Positions 1,810-19,911 of a DNA stretch of 26,673 bases are shown here, one piece after another (the stretch's first letter is position 1; every line of letters starts with the position of its first letter). The position numbers and the translations under genes were made by a program. The notes below the pieces were generated by a model. That model was not told the DNA's origin and did not search any database. It saw only the letters and a program-made list of their open reading frames with translations. Origin of the DNA: a phage; NCBI GenBank assembly GCA_014436445.1, contig GCA_014436445.1_4089.1. One strand, given 5' to 3'.

Positions 1810-2023
1810 TTTATATCTCGCTCTTTTGGAGGTGGGCTGCACTATTGCCGCCCTACGAGATACATTATCGCAGTACTGATATACTTTGTCAATACTTTTT
1901 TTGAAATAGTTTTGAGTACTGGCATTACATCCACCAGCAGATAGTTACTCACCGTTATTAACTATCTTATAGATACTTCTCTGCACCCTGTGGGCTAGTT
2001 TTTGTCTATGCGTATATAATAGC

Positions 2024-3526: not shown

Positions 3527-3795
3527 AATAAGTATTCCACTTCGTTAGCTTTCAGGTTAGTATCGATCATCAGTGGTTTTTTGTAGTCCACAAAACGATT
3601 AGTTTTCTCGATAGCGAAGCCCATATAATCCAGTTTGCTTACAGTACATTCATTCTTAAAAACTTCTTTCGCGGCATTGATGGCTGATTCAATTGATAAC
3701 CGCCCATCTAAATTAATGTTACCAAATGATCCACCAGCAGAAGTAGGATTACCGTTCATATCTTTAATAATCATAGTAGCGGAGTAGCTGGACAT
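3523..3795 (-). CDS. hypothetical protein (90 aa), first gene of a two-gene operon
   Basis: Track ORF; leader hairpin GGGGAGAACTATTCTCCCC and TTGACA/TATAAT promoter at 3816-3880. Confidence 0.6.
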   Translation of the reverse strand: MSSYSATMIIKDMNGNPTSAGGSFGNINLDGRLSIESAINAAKEVFKNECTVSKLDYMGFAIEKTNRFVDYKKPLMIDTNLKANEVEYLL

Positions 3796-4937: not shown

Positions 4938-5180
4938 TTACAGTACTTTACTATCAATGGCAACTACTTTTTTAACACTTACAGCGTGAATCACTTCCTT
5001 AGTGTTTTTAGTACTGAATACTTTCGCTGTTCCTTGTTCTACTGCAATGCGATAACGACCGTTAACATCAACCATATTAATAAAGTCCGGTGTACTAAAC
5101 CGAGTAGTACGGCATTTCAGTACTGTTAACAGTTCCACCAGCGATGTAGTTTCTTTGATACGTTTTTCTAAAGTAATCAT
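4938..5180 (-). CDS. hypothetical protein (80 aa)
   Basis: Track ORF; second promoter class (TTGACAGTACTCAAATGTTTTAGTACTATG...) at 5195-5240, repeated at 5470-5520. Confidence 0.55.
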   Translation of the reverse strand: MITLEKRIKETTSLVELLTVLKCRTTRFSTPDFINMVDVNGRYRIAVEQGTAKVFSTKNTKEVIHAVSVKKVVAIDSKVL

Positions 5181-6649: not shown

Positions 6650-6736
6650 TTTAATTTCTCTCTTTTTGTTAGGAGGGGAACCATTCCCCTCACTTGATGT
6701 AAACTATTATACAGTACTAAGATACTTTGTCAATAC

Positions 6737-6871
6737 TTATTTGTTTTCTTTTCGTAATTTCTTTTCAGCTTCAACTACATTACGATTTGTGCAAACCACT
6801 TCATCGGATAAATCTAACTTCCAGCCAGCCAGGGGATTGGTTGCTTTTTTAGTGTTGTTTGCTGCTTTCAT
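6737..6871 (-). CDS. hypothetical small protein (44 aa; MKAANNTKKATNPLAGWKLDLSDEVVCTNRNVVEAEKKLRKENK)
   Basis: Not in the track (under 60 aa). Own promoter TTGACAATAGTTTTTAGTACTGTATAAT at 6890-6935 and an AAGGAAACATC Shine-Dalgarno before the ATG. Confidence 0.4.
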   Translation of the reverse strand: MKAANNTKKATNPLAGWKLDLSDEVVCTNRNVVEAEKKLRKENK

Positions 6872-6938: not shown

Positions 6939-7139
6939 TCAAATTGTTTCCCATTTCATGTTACCCGCTTTACGCTGTGCAACAGGAATAAACATGTTAT
7001 TAATGTTACTAATATAACCGACCTGTAAGTCACGCTGTGAACCATACGCCCGACTTGCTGCATTTTTAGCACCGCGTTCTGATTTATAAACGCCGCTGGA
7101 TACTGTAAAGCCTACTACACCGAAAGTAAAATGTTTCAT
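6939..7139 (-). CDS. hypothetical small protein (66 aa)
   Basis: Track ORF; AAAGAGGAA Shine-Dalgarno; promoter TTGACA, 16 nt, TATAAT at 7160-7195. Confidence 0.55.
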   Translation of the reverse strand: MKHFTFGVVGFTVSSGVYKSERGAKNAASRAYGSQRDLQVGYISNINNMFIPVAQRKAGNMKWETI

Positions 7140-7205
7140 TTTGTATTCCTCTTTGTGGTTTATGTAAGTATTATACTCGTTTAATTTCTATTGTCAAACT
7201 ATTTT

Positions 7206-7281
7206 ATCAGGGGAGGTTTTCGTATGTCTTACTCCTGGACTACTTAACGGGGAGTTACTTGTTTCGTTCCCCGTCCTGATG
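7206..7281 (-). ncRNA. candidate structured RNA or leader element, copy 1 (copy 2 at 17522-17597)
   Basis: A ~76-nt element bounded by the inverted termini ATCAGG...CCTGAT, with an internal CGGGGA...TCCCCG stem, transcribed from the TTGCAT/TATAAT promoter at about 7283-7320. It differs from the 17522-17597 copy at only 4 positions. Confidence 0.35.
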
Positions 7282-7462
7282 TAAAACATTATACTTGATT
7301 CTAAGTACAATGCAAGTACTTTTTAAAAATAGTTTTCAGTACTTGATAGTACTAGCCACCAGCATATAATAGATACATTTATGCACCCTGTGGGCTGATT
7401 TGTTTCTATGCGTATATAATAGCAAAGGGACTGACCGGAGTCAATCCCTTTTTTAAATCTTT

Positions 7463-7612
7463 TTAAACTTGTTTTGGGTTGCGATATGTGATAGCGTTCG
7501 GGTACATTTGTTTAATGTTATTCCATGCCTGGTTAACATTGTAACCACTTGATCGAATCAGTTGGTTACTACCGACACCTTGAAACACTACTTCAAATAA
7601 GAATTCTTTCAT
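7463..7612 (-). CDS. hypothetical small protein (49 aa)
   Basis: Not in the track. GAGGTG Shine-Dalgarno; followed by the terminator repeat at 7424-7453. Confidence 0.4.
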   Translation of the reverse strand: MKEFLFEVVFQGVGSNQLIRSSGYNVNQAWNNIKQMYPNAITYRNPKQV

Positions 7613-7782
7613 GCTTTCACCTCGCTATCTGCTTTGCCTTTACGCCAGGCCGTTGCTAATTGTTCGCGTTGCCATAAGTCGAGTGATACGTAAAGTTTTG
7701 CATTATCACCCTTCGGATATTCGCCAGTAGTGCCTAACCGATAAAACAGATCTTTCAGTACTGATAATTCTACTTGGATCAT
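7609..7782 (-). CDS. hypothetical small protein (57 aa)
   Basis: Not in the track. AGGAG Shine-Dalgarno; ATGA overlap with the downstream ORF. Confidence 0.4.
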   Translation of the reverse strand: MIQVELSVLKDLFYRLGTTGEYPKGDNAKLYVSLDLWQREQLATAWRKGKADSEVKA

Positions 7783-7871
7783 TGTATTACTCCTGATTGT
7801 GTTAGTACTTCTACGATGGCATGAATGATCATAAGTACAGCTAACACAACAATCATCGGATTCATTTGCAT
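7779..7871 (-). CDS. 30-aa hydrophobic peptide (MQMNPMIVVLAVLMIIHAIVEVLTQSGVIQ), predicted single-pass membrane peptide
   Basis: Not in the track. AAGGAG Shine-Dalgarno 8 nt before the ATG; about 20 consecutive hydrophobic residues; its stop overlaps the next start (ATGA). Confidence 0.4.
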   Translation of the reverse strand: MQMNPMIVVLAVLMIIHAIVEVLTQSGVIQ

Positions 7872-7888
7872 AAGCTGTACTCCTTCTA

Positions 7889-8101
7889 TTAATCTTTCAG
7901 CCAATGATCTTGAATGAATTTTTCACAGAATCCCTGTTTCATAGATTCTAACAGGCGTTCACGGTGAGCGGCGGCATATTGCTCAGTACTATGCGTTACG
8001 CCAGGTTGATAACGTGAAACACCGTCTGGTCCGATATATTGAACATCCCACGGTTTTTCGTTAGTATCAGACCATTTACGAACGATTAGTTGACCTTGCA
8101 T
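7889..8101 (-). CDS. hypothetical small protein (70 aa), first gene of a four-gene micro-operon
   Basis: Track ORF; AAGAGGAAAG Shine-Dalgarno; leader hairpin GGGGAGAATCATTTCTCCCC and promoter at 8110-8180. Confidence 0.6.
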   Translation of the reverse strand: MQGQLIVRKWSDTNEKPWDVQYIGPDGVSRYQPGVTHSTEQYAAAHRERLLESMKQGFCEKFIQDHWLKD

Positions 8102-8186
8102 GTTTCTTTCCTCTTAGTGGGGAGAATCATTTCTCCCCTTCATGTAAACTATTATACAGTACTACGATGCTTTGTCAAATACTTTT

Positions 8187-8375
8187 TTAAAGTTTATGAA
8201 TCAATTCTTTATCTAAGCGATAGCGAACATTATTGATTGTAACTGCATTGTTTTTAATGCTACGCTGTACAGGTCCACCAGCAATAACAAACGTTGCCTT
8301 ATTGCCCCGAACGATGATAGCACTTCCAGGATTACCAAAATCATCTTGTACTAAAATACTTGATAAGTTTTGCAT
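8187..8375 (-). CDS. hypothetical small protein (62 aa)
   Basis: Track ORF; leader hairpin and promoter at 8390-8450. Confidence 0.55.
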   Translation of the reverse strand: MQNLSSILVQDDFGNPGSAIIVRGNKATFVIAGGPVQRSIKNNAVTINNVRYRLDKELIHKL

Positions 8376-8454
8376 TTGTCTTTCCTTGTAGTGGGGAGAA
8401 CTATTCTCCCCTTCATGTAAACTATTATACAGTACTTAAAACTAAATGCAAGTA

Positions 8455-8811
8455 CTAGGATAAAATCATTATAGGATATTCACAGTTAATCAGTACTTCA
8501 AAACCAAAACTTTCATACCATTCTTTAAGATTAAACTCGTTATCTTCTCCCGTATCGCATTCTAAGATGATACAATCTGAATCATCGGCGGCATCAATAA
8601 AGGCATTCATTAATTCAGTACCTTCACCGTTACCGCGATTATCGGGATCAACATAAAGAGAATCAATAAACGCTACACGATCATAATCAAGATCCGGTGC
8701 AACAATGCCACGTTTAACAAACCAGTACTGCAATTGTGCTACTTTGCCTTGTACTTGATAGCCAGTGATCTCACCATTGTCTGTAGTACGCGTGATATGT
8801 TGTATACCCAT
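8455..8811 (-). CDS. small protein with a GNAT acetyltransferase-like motif (118 aa)
   Basis: The segment LYVDPDNRGNGEGTELMNAF resembles GNAT motif A (the acetyl-CoA-binding R/Q-x-x-G-x-G/A loop), but the protein is shorter than a typical GNAT. GAGGA Shine-Dalgarno; TTGACA/TATAAT promoter at 8835-8870. Confidence 0.5.
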   Translation of the reverse strand: MGIQHITRTTDNGEITGYQVQGKVAQLQYWFVKRGIVAPDLDYDRVAFIDSLYVDPDNRGNGEGTELMNAFIDAADDSDCIILECDTGEDNEFNLKEWYESFGFEVLINCEYPIMILS

Positions 8812-9659: not shown

Positions 9660-9764
9660 TGTTAAACGTCCTGTAACGCATTCTAACGAGTTAAACGGTT
9701 TAGTACTGGCATTGTATAGGGTAAATGATTATAGCCCACCAGCGTTAACCAGTGGGCTATAATC

Positions 9765-10491: not shown

Positions 10492-10586
10492 TTTGTTTTC
10501 TCTCTCTGTTAGTGGGGAGAACTATTCTCCCCTTGATGTAAACTATTATACAGTACTAAAAACTATTGTCAAACTATTTTTTAATA

Positions 10587-10928
10587 TTATTCGAAATCTT
10601 CTGGACCGGACTGATAATCATCTTCACCGTATGCACTTTCTAACTTCTCGCCAGTATGATCATCAGTTAGTGAGTCATCCTCATAGTTCACGTCTACGCC
10701 CGTGATGTAAAACTGGCTATCGTCTGGATCATTGAAATTAATTTTCTGAATGTTTACAATAACTGTATTGATACCCAGGACACAGCCATCAGCCGTTACA
10801 AAGTACTGATATTTTTCACATCCACCACTATTGAAACCGTAATTGATTTCGGCCCGACCATCATTTAAACGCAGTGCCTGAGCGATGATTTCGTTTTCAA
10901 AGTTAGATTGAGCAATTGCAATAGTCAT
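10587..10928 (-). CDS. hypothetical protein with a strongly acidic C-terminal tail (113 aa)
   Basis: Track ORF; C-terminal ~40 residues are rich in D/E (YEDDSLTDDHTGEKLESAYGEDDYQSGPEDFE); leader hairpin and promoter at 10947-11010. Confidence 0.6.
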   Translation of the reverse strand: MTIAIAQSNFENEIIAQALRLNDGRAEINYGFNSGGCEKYQYFVTADGCVLGINTVIVNIQKINFNDPDDSQFYITGVDVNYEDDSLTDDHTGEKLESAYGEDDYQSGPEDFE

Positions 10929-14103: not shown

Positions 14104-14330
14104 CTTTATATCCTCAGTTAGTTAAGGTGTTTCGCCTTGATGTAAAACATTATACGCTAATCTCTGAATCGTGCAAGTACTTTTTATTACTTTTTGCAAA
14201 ATACTTTAAACGCTCTAAATCGCATTCTAACGACCTTAACTCCACCAGCTAGGGCGATGCATCAGATAATCAGTTTAATGCGTTAGAATCGATTCTATGA
14301 GGTGCTGACGGCATGGAATACTATAGACAC

Positions 14331-15873: not shown

Positions 15874-15958
15874 TTTATTTTCCTCATTACCAGGGAGAAC
15901 CATTTCCCCCTTGATGTAAACTATTATACAGTACTAAAAACTAATTGCAAGTACTTTT

Positions 15959-16162
15959 TTAATTTAATTGCTTTAAAACATACTCAAAGACACCACGCAC
16001 ATCATTGATCATCGCCTGGCGGTTAGCAGGTAACGCATCAGGATCGCCACTATCCCAGGCATTGATAAAACTCCCCAAATCATGATAGATTTTATTCTGT
16101 AAGCCGATCAACTGCAATTCTTTTTCTTCAAGCTCTTTGATACGTTCAATTAAATCACTCAT
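15959..16162 (-). CDS. hypothetical small protein (67 aa)
   Basis: Track ORF 15959..16198 trimmed to the ATG at 16162 (AAGGA Shine-Dalgarno), 17 nt after the stop of 16180..16461. Confidence 0.5.
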   Translation of the reverse strand: MSDLIERIKELEEKELQLIGLQNKIYHDLGSFINAWDSGDPDALPANRQAMINDVRGVFEYVLKQLN

Positions 16163-17597: not shown

Positions 17598-17752
17598 TAA
17601 AACATTATACGCCTTTAAACATAGTTGGCAAGTACTTTTTGAAAATAGTTTTTAGTACTTTCATATAGATACACTCCCGCACCCTATGGGCTATCGCCTA
17701 GTGTCCGGCTTGTAAGTATTATCTCACTAAGCCGGATAACTGTCAAGTACTT

Positions 17753-18798: not shown

Positions 18799-19116
18799 CG
18801 TTTTAATCTCTTTTAAAAGTGAGTCGGGAGCGTCTCCCCCGTCTCGATGTAAAACATTCTACACCTTTCCCAATACTTTGCAAGTACTTTCTACAAATAC
18901 TTTTAAAATAGTTTTCTTTCTATATAGGAGTACTGGAACAATCCAGGGAGAACAATCTTTCAGTACTGAATCATTAAGATACCCGTAAAACGGCCTCAAT
19001 CGCATTCTAACGCATTAATACACCTAAGCTATACATTTGCACCGCCACCAGCTAACCAGGGCTTTACGGGCCGTTTAAACGCGTTAAATTATTTTCAATT
19101 ATTTTGTTTTTAGCTA

Positions 19117-19881: not shown

Positions 19882-19911
19882 AGTGGATAATCCACCAGCT
19901 TGTGCTGGTGG
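19882..19911. promoter_or_regulatory. DnaA-box-like 9-mer inside palindrome TGGATAATCCA, followed by hairpin CCACCAGCTTGTGCTGGTGG
   Basis: AGTGGATAA matches the DnaA box (TGTGGATAA, the complement of TTATCCACA) at 8 of 9 positions; an 8-bp-stem hairpin lies immediately 3'. Confidence 0.3.

Follow-up and report, generated by a model that had tools for sequence, protein, structure and literature searches.

Sequence evidence for a conserved membrane-type micropeptide gene, with a probable hairpin over its ribosome-binding site, in an early-type operon of an Asteriusvirus-type jumbo coliphage

Introduction

Proteins of fewer than 50 amino acids (aa) are routinely missed or left as "hypothetical". 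When a 30-aa open reading frame (ORF) lies between two small genes of a phage operon, is it a gene, how is it translated, and what might its product do? This question is raised by positions 7463 to 8101 of a 26,673-nucleotide (nt) stretch of phage DNA (GenBank assembly GCA_014436445.1, contig GCA_014436445.1_4089.1), which as a whole we call the window. On its minus strand, four small genes follow one another here, designated p70, p30, p57 and p49 after the lengths of their products (Table 1).

An earlier note on this DNA had reported that three ORFs of 30, 57 and 49 aa, each with a Shine-Dalgarno (SD) site, lie downstream of the gene at 7889..8101 and had been missed. All three are present, and their SD sites (AAGGAG, AGGAG and GAGGTGA) can be read directly. 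They do fall below the 60-aa cutoff used in that note, but they are not new to the databases: p30, p57 and p49 correspond to gp298-300 of phage 121Q, annotated as hypothetical proteins, and p30 is on record both as 121Q gp298 (AIT14188.1, YP_009101885.1) and as G17_00022/00635. The mini-ORF carries no annotation in phages RaK2, Muenster, phiKp_21, PBECO4, slurp01 and A4. Our analysis points to p30 as one small protein under protein-level selection in an early terminal-repeat region, and adds its conservation across genera, a probable hairpin gating its ribosome-binding site (RBS), and its replacement by a promoter cassette in relatives.

Conservation marks p30 as a membrane-type micropeptide gene

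The p30 product is nearly all hydrophobic helix, as had been claimed. Its grand average of hydropathy (GRAVY) is 1.54, its best 19-residue Kyte-Doolittle mean is 2.65, and residues 6-23 (7856..7803) form a predicted membrane helix with a summed energy of -0.8 kcal/mol on the Hessa scale. The transmembrane prediction that the earlier note had proposed as a check thus comes out positive by both the Kyte-Doolittle and Hessa scales. The copies in phages A4 and RaK2 likewise qualify as membrane spans, and that of phage Turkey5 is marginal (+1.4 on the Hessa scale). Two polar residues, His17 and Glu21, are placed on one helix face by the sequence, and the C-terminus (TQSGVIQ) is uncharged.

Chance is a poor explanation for this ORF. 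When the 106-nt spacer was shuffled 100,000 times, three shuffles reproduced a p30-like ORF of 25 codons or more, running up to the next start and having both an SD and a hydrophobic 17-mer. Moreover, p30 is the sole small hydrophobic ORF with a strong SD across the 26.7-kb window.

The pattern of substitution points to selection on the protein. p30 and its A4 copy share 48% of their aa and 62% of their nt. They differ at 13 of 19.5 synonymous sites and at 20 of 67.5 non-synonymous sites, which puts the ratio of non-synonymous to synonymous change (dN/dS) at 0.23 (Fisher p 0.003); across comparisons, dN/dS ranges from 0.15 to 0.29. Differences at the first, second and third codon positions number 12, 4 and 17, so the second position is the least changed. 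The A4 and Turkey5 ORFs are 48-52% identical to p30 in protein, yet frame, length and hydrophobic helix are kept.

Syntenic mini-ORFs extend this conservation. The Klebsiella phages RaK2, Muenster and phiKp_21 carry, between their p70 and p57 homologues, an unannotated 27-aa ORF (MYMPIIIPLAVLLIAAVICEQYHLLGM) that has an SD and whose stop lies 3 nt ahead of the p57-homologue ATG. A metagenomic contig (Logan SRR12876857) encodes a p70 homologue, a 38-aa ORF (MYKPFIVILAACLIAASVQDG...YHLNRTP) and a p57 homologue, with the stop of the mini-ORF 1 nt ahead of the ATG. The four types of mini-ORF peptide have the motif M-x-[MK]-(N)-P-[MFI]-I-[VI]-x-[LI]-A in common, and an acidic residue follows the helix (residue 21) in every type except the A4 copy, which has Val there. 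In five of the six pairs, the peptides resemble each other more than composition-matched shuffles do (z 3.6-11.3). The mini-ORF was also considered as a lipoprotein, given the LAAC of the Logan copy; this was ruled out, as the window p30 has no cysteine and the RaK2 peptide no lipobox.

Because of the dN/dS values, the codon-position pattern, the syntenic homologues, the similarity above shuffles and the low chance expectation, we conclude that p30 is, as judged from these comparisons, a real and conserved membrane-type micropeptide gene under purifying selection. It belongs to no family in PHROGs, Pfam or NCBIfam, and a phmmer search against 1.84 billion representatives returned its own cluster only.

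A predicted RNA hairpin covers the p30 start

The p30 start is predicted to lie in a stable RNA hairpin in which the GAG of the SD, the spacer and the AUG (7882..7866) pair with p30 codons 9-13 (7849..7833). None of 500 shuffles was equally stable. The hairpin begins 7 nt past the p70 stop codon. Phages G17 and PBECO4 carry the identical hairpin, and the same architecture is built from other sequences in RaK2 (-18.1 kcal/mol), Muenster (-19.2 kcal/mol) and the Logan contig (-19.4 kcal/mol), where GAGAGGCG pairs with CGCCUGUC. Thus, lineages with the mini-ORF behind p70 have hairpins of -18.1 to -20.2 kcal/mol, with at most 0.6% of shuffles equally stable. No significant structure was found in A4 (-10.9 kcal/mol) or Turkey5 (-10.1 kcal/mol), in which the mini-ORF is the first cistron behind a promoter cassette of its own.

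Comparative data are consistent with the fold. In a six-sequence alignment, 88.9% of cells are paired, versus at most 62.5% for slid registers, and pair 14-51 switches from AU to UA between Asteriusvirus and Alcyoneusvirus, the 3' change being at the synonymous third position of Ala11. Folding of the other junctions gave no comparable structure at the p57 and p49 starts. Rfam yielded no match at the gathering threshold in the window, and for 7100..8250 none at E up to 1 except a chance match to mir-12. Because a ribosome terminating on p70 would open a hairpin that starts 7 nt further on, the modeled structure suggests that p30 translation is licensed by the upstream p70 cistron.

Operon anatomy and phage context

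The four genes lie between a consensus promoter and a terminator hairpin (Table 1). Directly upstream of the promoter is an AT-rich stretch (AAAAAAGTAT), and the record of phage G17 carries a terminator annotation at the place corresponding to the hairpin. No strong promoter or terminator signal was found on the minus strand between 8151 and 7451; the plus strand within the operon has a single promoter-like site, a weak 9/12 match at 7669..7696. The linkage by ATGA overlaps that had been described for the mini-ORFs holds at p30/p57 (7782..7779) and p57/p49 (7612..7609), but p70 and p30 do not overlap and are merely adjacent, with a 17-nt spacer. Overlapping stop and start codons together with the absence of an internal promoter or terminator are, at the level of sequence, what a translationally coupled operon would be expected to have.

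Table 1. Features of the p70-p30-p57-p49 operon, in order of transcription
Feature	Position	Strand	Remarks
Sigma-70 promoter, TTGACA-16-TATAAT	8178..8151	minus	12/12 hexamer matches; member of a repeated cassette, families D1 and D3
Stem-loop in the 5' untranslated region, GGGGAGAA/UUCUCCCC	8138..8119	minus	-13.9 kcal/mol, z -3.56; stem-loop half of the PeSL-like (promoter-early stem-loop) cassette
p70, 70 aa, first cistron	8101..7889	minus	SD GAGG 8113..8110
p30, 30 aa, MQMNPMIVVLAVLMIIHAIVEVLTQSGVIQ	7871..7779	minus	SD AAGGAG 7885..7880, 8 nt 5' of AUG
Predicted RNA hairpin over p30 SD and AUG	7882..7833	minus	from folding, -20.2 kcal/mol
p57, 57 aa	7782..7609	minus	SD AGGAG 7794..7790, inside p30, 7 nt 5' of AUG
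p49, 49 aa	7612..7463	minus	SD GAGGTGA 7623..7617, 4 nt 5' of AUG
Terminator hairpin, 12 bp	7451..7424	minus	-19.5 kcal/mol, z -5.65

About 1 kb around the operon is 85-95% identical to ~38 Asteriusvirus genomes, which are jumbo coliphages and Salmonella phages and include 121Q, PBECO4, phAPEC6 and G17 (the 121Q/PBECO4 group). The exact p57 protein is on record solely from an Escherichia coli assembly contig (locus tag HI146_RS23800); by these matches, the window is phage DNA that makes up an entire contig of a bacterial assembly and comes from an Asteriusvirus-type jumbo coliphage. The homologous locus lies within the annotated long direct terminal repeat of Klebsiella phage Muenster (1-20,030), Pectobacterium phage CBB (1-22,456) and vB_Ec-M-J, and it is doubled in phage records that hold both repeats, so that G17 has two identical p30 copies, G17_00022 and G17_00635. 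Placement in a terminal repeat is taken from these relatives, in which the repeat is ~20 kb; the ends of the window are those of a contig and do not define one. The identity to Asteriusvirus, the consensus sigma-70 promoter and the terminal-repeat location in relatives bear out the view that this is a phage operon of early type. The long terminal repeat of the relatives has been described (PMC5259590, PMC11895373). In phage CBB, short hypothetical ORFs and RpoD-like promoters are concentrated in one main cluster (CBB_390-546), a suspected early host-takeover region that the RpoD-like promoters on the CBB terminal repeat could continue (PMC5259590).

The operon itself is a mosaic. The window p30 and p49 are 100% identical to those of 121Q (p30 also to that of phAPEC6), and p57 is 98% identical to that of slurp01 and 83% identical to that of 121Q over residues 1-52, the sole stretch aligned by BLAST. 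These identities within 7463..8101 indicate recombination inside the operon.

The neighboring proteins belong to families of unknown function. p70 is a member of phrog_13428, with homologues throughout the RaK2-like jumbo phages; its AlphaFold2 model is a beta3-alpha2 fold with a predicted local distance difference test (pLDDT) score of 66, and a sequence profile search of the PDB gave no match. p57 (phrog_10572) occurs in 63 phage records from Escherichia, Salmonella, Klebsiella, Yersinia, Cronobacter, Pectobacterium, Serratia and Erwinia hosts. In the Yersinia, Serratia, Cronobacter and Pectobacterium phages, it stands alone behind its own TTGACA...TATACT promoter, without a mini-ORF and 2-3 kb from the p70 homologue. 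Its AlphaFold2 model is a three-helix bundle (pLDDT 83.5), for which Foldseek found no PDB match with E <1 and, in BFVD, only its own uncharacterised relatives; with no informative structural neighbours, a DNA-binding helix-turn-helix made of helices 2-3, which had been considered, lacks support. p49 (phrog_37188) is found in Asteriusvirus, and in Alcyoneusvirus it is located upstream of the p70 homologue. By synteny, therefore, all four genes are neighbours in both genera, in differing order.

A variable slot between p70 and p57

Across 13 Asteriusvirus loci, this slot was found in three states. In state A it holds p30 alone (the window, 121Q, G17, slurp01 and PBECO4). In state B, a promoter/stem-loop cassette that brings its own strong SD replaces p30 (UE-S1, ph0011, WPEC5, Turkey3, EC22.5-2, CMSTMSU and three metagenome contigs). 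In state C, the cassette is followed by a 29-aa ORF, the mini-ORF of A4 and Turkey5. Because ~40% of Asteriusvirus records lack p30 and have the cassette in its place, p30 is, on this distribution, dispensable. The gene order p70, mini-ORF, p57, common to RaK2 and the metagenomic lineage, is by the same kind of comparison the ancestral one, the cassette having been inserted before the mini-ORF or having replaced it elsewhere; the three states look like the outcome of cassette-associated shuffling. Scans of IMG/VR and metagenomes with a p57 profile added one genome and no further type of mini-ORF. The p57 versions of 77-91 aa annotated in state-B genomes (beginning MYNVLYREGNSSPPNKEES; for example UE-S1 L003 1897..2172, P0002) were considered as fusions and rejected as an annotation artefact; these annotations run upstream through the promoter/stem-loop cassette.

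Proposed mechanism and competing explanations

The reading we favor, to which we give a probability of about one half, is that the operon is a single immediate-early unit with hairpin-gated, coupled translation, in which p30 is an inner-membrane accessory factor acting on the host envelope. Immediate-early transcription by host sigma-70 RNA polymerase would run from the promoter to the terminator hairpin and yield a four-cistron mRNA whose length, from the positions of the two signals, would be ~700 nt. Ribosomes would load at p70 while the p30 SD and AUG remain locked in the hairpin of about -20 kcal/mol; most p30 synthesis would depend on a ribosome that completes p70 and thereby opens the hairpin, and p30 output would otherwise be low. 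From the ATGA overlaps we propose termination-reinitiation at the p57 and p49 starts: ribosomes ending p30, and then p57, would re-initiate at these junctions, and the output of p30, p57 and p49 would thereby be tied to p70. The peptide most likely inserts in the inner membrane as a single-span helix (residues ~6-23). The function we prefer is more speculative: early in infection, p30 would bind to, or disturb, some component of the host envelope, much as host-takeover and superinfection-exclusion factors do. It would be an accessory factor that the phage can spare, and the hairpin would hold its dose low because too much of it would be harmful. By analogy with other phages, a part for p30 in host takeover or superinfection exclusion is plausible.

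Several points weigh against this proposal. The flanks of the p30 helix are nearly uncharged, which makes its topology unpredictable, and the hydrophobic core before Glu21 has only ~16 residues. With p30 lost from ~40% of relatives, p57 and p49 evidently do not depend on it. The contrast between lineages with and without the hairpin amounts to one evolutionary event, as A4 and Turkey5 are close relatives. The hairpin arms hold AGTAC/GTACT half-sites of a palindrome that is 17-fold over-represented window-wide, and for this reason the inverted repeat could have a role at the DNA level. Pfam, PHROGs and NCBIfam gave no known-function family for any of the four proteins, and no transcriptome, early proteome or ribosome-profiling data for this phage group were found in the literature.

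It is unlikely that p30 is a mere coupling device, a leader or upstream ORF that delivers ribosomes to p57 and encodes a functionless peptide. The p57 SD is indeed encoded by p30 codons 26-28, the RaK2 and Logan p57 homologues have just a weak AGGA 9 nt upstream with the mini-ORF stop 1-3 nt before the AUG, and where p30 is absent a cassette with its own strong SD fills the place. However, three lineages have kept a hydrophobic helix in the N-terminal and central residues, which are distant from the p57 SD, and the shared N-terminal motif would not be expected to persist in an ORF that served only as a spacer; the dN/dS range and the small number of differences at second codon positions likewise argue for a selected peptide. 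Conservation of p30 at the protein level thus leaves a purely coupling role disfavoured.

We consider it distinctly unlikely that p30 is a membrane tether or subunit for soluble p70, p57 and p49 acting as one complex. Such a complex would fit the order p70, mini-ORF, p57 kept in three lineages, the p49 homologue in the same neighbourhood in Alcyoneusvirus, and coupled translation, which favours fixed product ratios. It fits poorly with the Asteriusviruses that have p57 and p49 but no p30, with the stand-alone p57 genes of the Yersinia, Cronobacter, Serratia and Pectobacterium phages, and with the fact that no fusion proteins were found.

Improbable, too, is a toxin-like peptide, membrane-depolarising or pore-forming in the manner of a type I toxin or small holin, whose dose the RBS hairpin would limit. 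Like the Hok, TisB and Ibs toxins, p30 is small and hydrophobic with a sequestered RBS, and the polar His17 and Glu21 share a helix face, but neither an antisense RNA gene nor membership in a toxin family was found (Pfam, NCBIfam, Rfam and a plus-strand promoter scan, whose sole hit is the weak 9/12 site, not a convincing antisense promoter). No holin family in Pfam or NCBIfam matched either, and the early-type sigma-70 promoter, far from any lysis genes, the small orphan neighbours and the uncharged C-terminus are unlike those of a holin or antiholin. A peptide that depolarised the membrane early would, moreover, starve the phage itself.

Least credible, and disfavoured on the same protein-level conservation, is an incidental ORF on an inverted repeat that is itself the functional element (for mRNA processing or stability, or as a DNA-binding site). 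In its favor are the stability of the hairpin, its conserved architecture and the huge over-representation of AGTACT-type palindromes in the window. Against it, A4 and Turkey5 lack the hairpin yet retain a hydrophobic ORF, dN/dS and the codon-position pattern point to selection on the protein, and the strong SD is at ideal spacing.

Returning to p30 as a hairpin-gated membrane factor, there is an outside chance that the proposal extends further, with p70, mini-ORF and p57 forming a conserved functional module of RaK2-like jumbo phages. Its micropeptide, harmful in excess and licensed by p70 translation via the conserved RBS-occluding hairpin, would target a specific inner-membrane machine or an envelope-associated defence and represent a new family of membrane effectors. 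If true, this module would be a phage counterpart of mok/hok-type gating, and annotations of RaK2-type genomes would so far have missed the effector family.

Comparison with known systems

In type I toxin systems, the hok and tisB mRNAs encode small hydrophobic peptides whose SD and AUG are sequestered in structure; mok/hok, the tisB standby site and MS2-type coupling are examples of gating through mRNA structure and upstream translation. The p30 locus resembles mok/hok-type gating in its ~30-aa hydrophobic peptide, its SD and AUG within a stable hairpin, and an upstream frame that ends just before. It differs in that no antisense RNA and no homology were found and in belonging to the early operon of a lytic phage rather than to an addiction locus; the gating here is a prediction from folding.

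Peptides of the ~30-aa class that consist of a single helix and bind a larger membrane protein are known from bacteria (MgrB, AcrZ, MgtS and KdpF). p30 is like them in length and in being essentially one membrane helix, as it is like NCBIfam NF033695 (KPN_01571, a 30-aa transporter-adjacent protein). Its match to that profile is weak and may be compositional (17.4 bits, E 0.0026; 15.3 bits for the A4 copy), far below the cutoff of 35, so that p30 is not a member.

The superinfection-exclusion proteins Imm (83 aa) and Sp (97 aa) of phage T4 are membrane proteins. Another small membrane protein, Gp11 of phage phiNM1, blocks cell division through peptidoglycan synthesis (PMC11237401). With all three, p30 shares the character of a small early product, membrane-anchored by prediction, and of a non-essential accessory; it has no similarity to them in sequence or length, being one helix with hardly any soluble part. 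The family and phmmer searches described above likewise gave no sign of homology to Imm or Sp.

At the level of the gene cluster, there is a parallel in the host-takeover module of phage SPO1, whose small early genes lie within the terminal redundancy (PMC6873191; Stewart et al. 1998 as cited there). Both are clusters of small genes with strong host-type early promoters and RBSs, arranged in short operons with mostly orphan products and associated with a long direct terminal repeat, in our case via the repeats of relatives. Unlike the SPO1 module, to which it has no sequence relationship, the operon comes from a RaK2-like jumbo-phage lineage with a Gram-negative host. Several of the SPO1 proteins, but none of the operon's products, are known for host-shutoff activity. 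SPO1 Gp56 has 79 aa, and p30 is far smaller.

The p30 finding answers no long-standing question. It does make p30 a cheap and concrete candidate for screens of host-envelope effectors, and a test case for how jumbo phages might dose potentially toxic micropeptides.

Cassettes and other repeats across the window

Eleven promoters with 12/12 hexamer matches lie on the minus strand in the first 20 kb of the window, and repeat families D1-D5 have 10-19 copies each. Promoter/stem-loop/SD cassettes, of which there are >25, precede most small genes (minus strand; for example 8197..8100, 8470..8394, 6752..6676, 10591..10515 and 15969..15893). They consist of an AT-rich stretch, TTGACA or TTGCAA, 16 nt with AGTACT, TATAAT, GGGGAGAA...TTCTCCCC and an SD. 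The cassette before p70 matches rV5-like phages (~140 kb; A73, W70) with 77-83% identity over 95 nt, which suggests that cassettes have been exchanged between unrelated groups of coliphages.

In the hyperplastic regions of T4-type phages, orphan ORFs are bordered by PeSL cassettes, through which they are gained and lost (PMC2839356, PMC4122927). The features that define them (Arbiol et al. 2010, PMC2839356) were found here: a strong promoter with an AT stretch, an adjacent stem-loop followed by GAGG and ATG, and many repeats at replacement junctions. In its composition, the window cassette, with its AT-rich stretch, sigma-70 promoter, GGGG...CCCC stem-loop, SD and ATG, thus fits the sequence-level definition of a PeSL, and, as with PeSLs, close relatives differ by a small orphan ORF that is replaced by, or joined to, a cassette. 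Unlike PeSLs, these cassettes reside in an Asteriusvirus rather than a T4-type phage, so PeSL-like shuffling would be documented outside the latter, and the ancestral p30 state has no flanking cassettes, so that not all states can be accounted for by simple excision between cassettes.

The window contains 153 copies of the palindrome AGTACT versus 9.1 +/- 2.8 expected, or about one per 174 bp, in promoter spacers, intergenic DNA and coding sequence (for example at 7757..7762, 7804..7809, 7985..7990 and 8158..8163). Often in the form CAGTACTG, it is visibly frequent in the RaK2, Yersinia and Cronobacter phage loci as well; no joint mention of AGTACT and jumbo phages was found in the literature searched.

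The E. coli Chi site, GCTGGTGG, is present 10 times versus 0.32 expected, with nine of the 10 copies on the transcribed minus strand (1938..1931, 3738..3731, 5142..5135, 7363..7356, 8282..8275, 9743..9736, 14249..14242, 19052..19045 and 19899..19892) and one on the plus strand (19904..19911). The same sequence lies 3' of p57 homologues in Yersinia, Pectobacterium and metagenomic relatives. Chi enrichment is known in some phages (PMC3784561, PMC12315714), and where such sites cluster in one orientation within a terminal-repeat region, they suggest that DNA ends are protected from RecBCD.

Finally, a promoter-like TTGACT-17-TATTAT (7444..7416) sits within the terminator hairpin of the operon. 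A unit made of a promoter and a double hairpin occurs seven times in the window (motif starts at 17690, 11085, 9400, 7394, 4248 and 1994 on the minus strand and 15574 on the plus strand), and the copy adjoining the operon spans ~7451..7340. Its promoter often lies inside the preceding terminator hairpin, with TTGACT in the loop and TG-TATTAT after the stem; then come ~10 nt, a short hairpin with a variable stem, ACUA, an invariant (A/G)CCC-AYA-GGGU hairpin and GC. The unit had no Rfam match. It is also found 3' of the p57 homologue in RaK2 and in Yersinia, Serratia, Cronobacter, Pectobacterium and metagenomic phages, sometimes as convergent pairs. RNAalifold on a MAFFT alignment recovered the second hairpin only, the first being misaligned. 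The first hairpin is present in 13 of 17 distinct copies, the one at 7394 lacking it, and the summed minimum free energy is -51.7 versus -15.4 +/- 5.0 for shuffled sequences. The double-hairpin unit is a candidate conserved element, either a small RNA or a 5' leader, perhaps of the put or nut kind.

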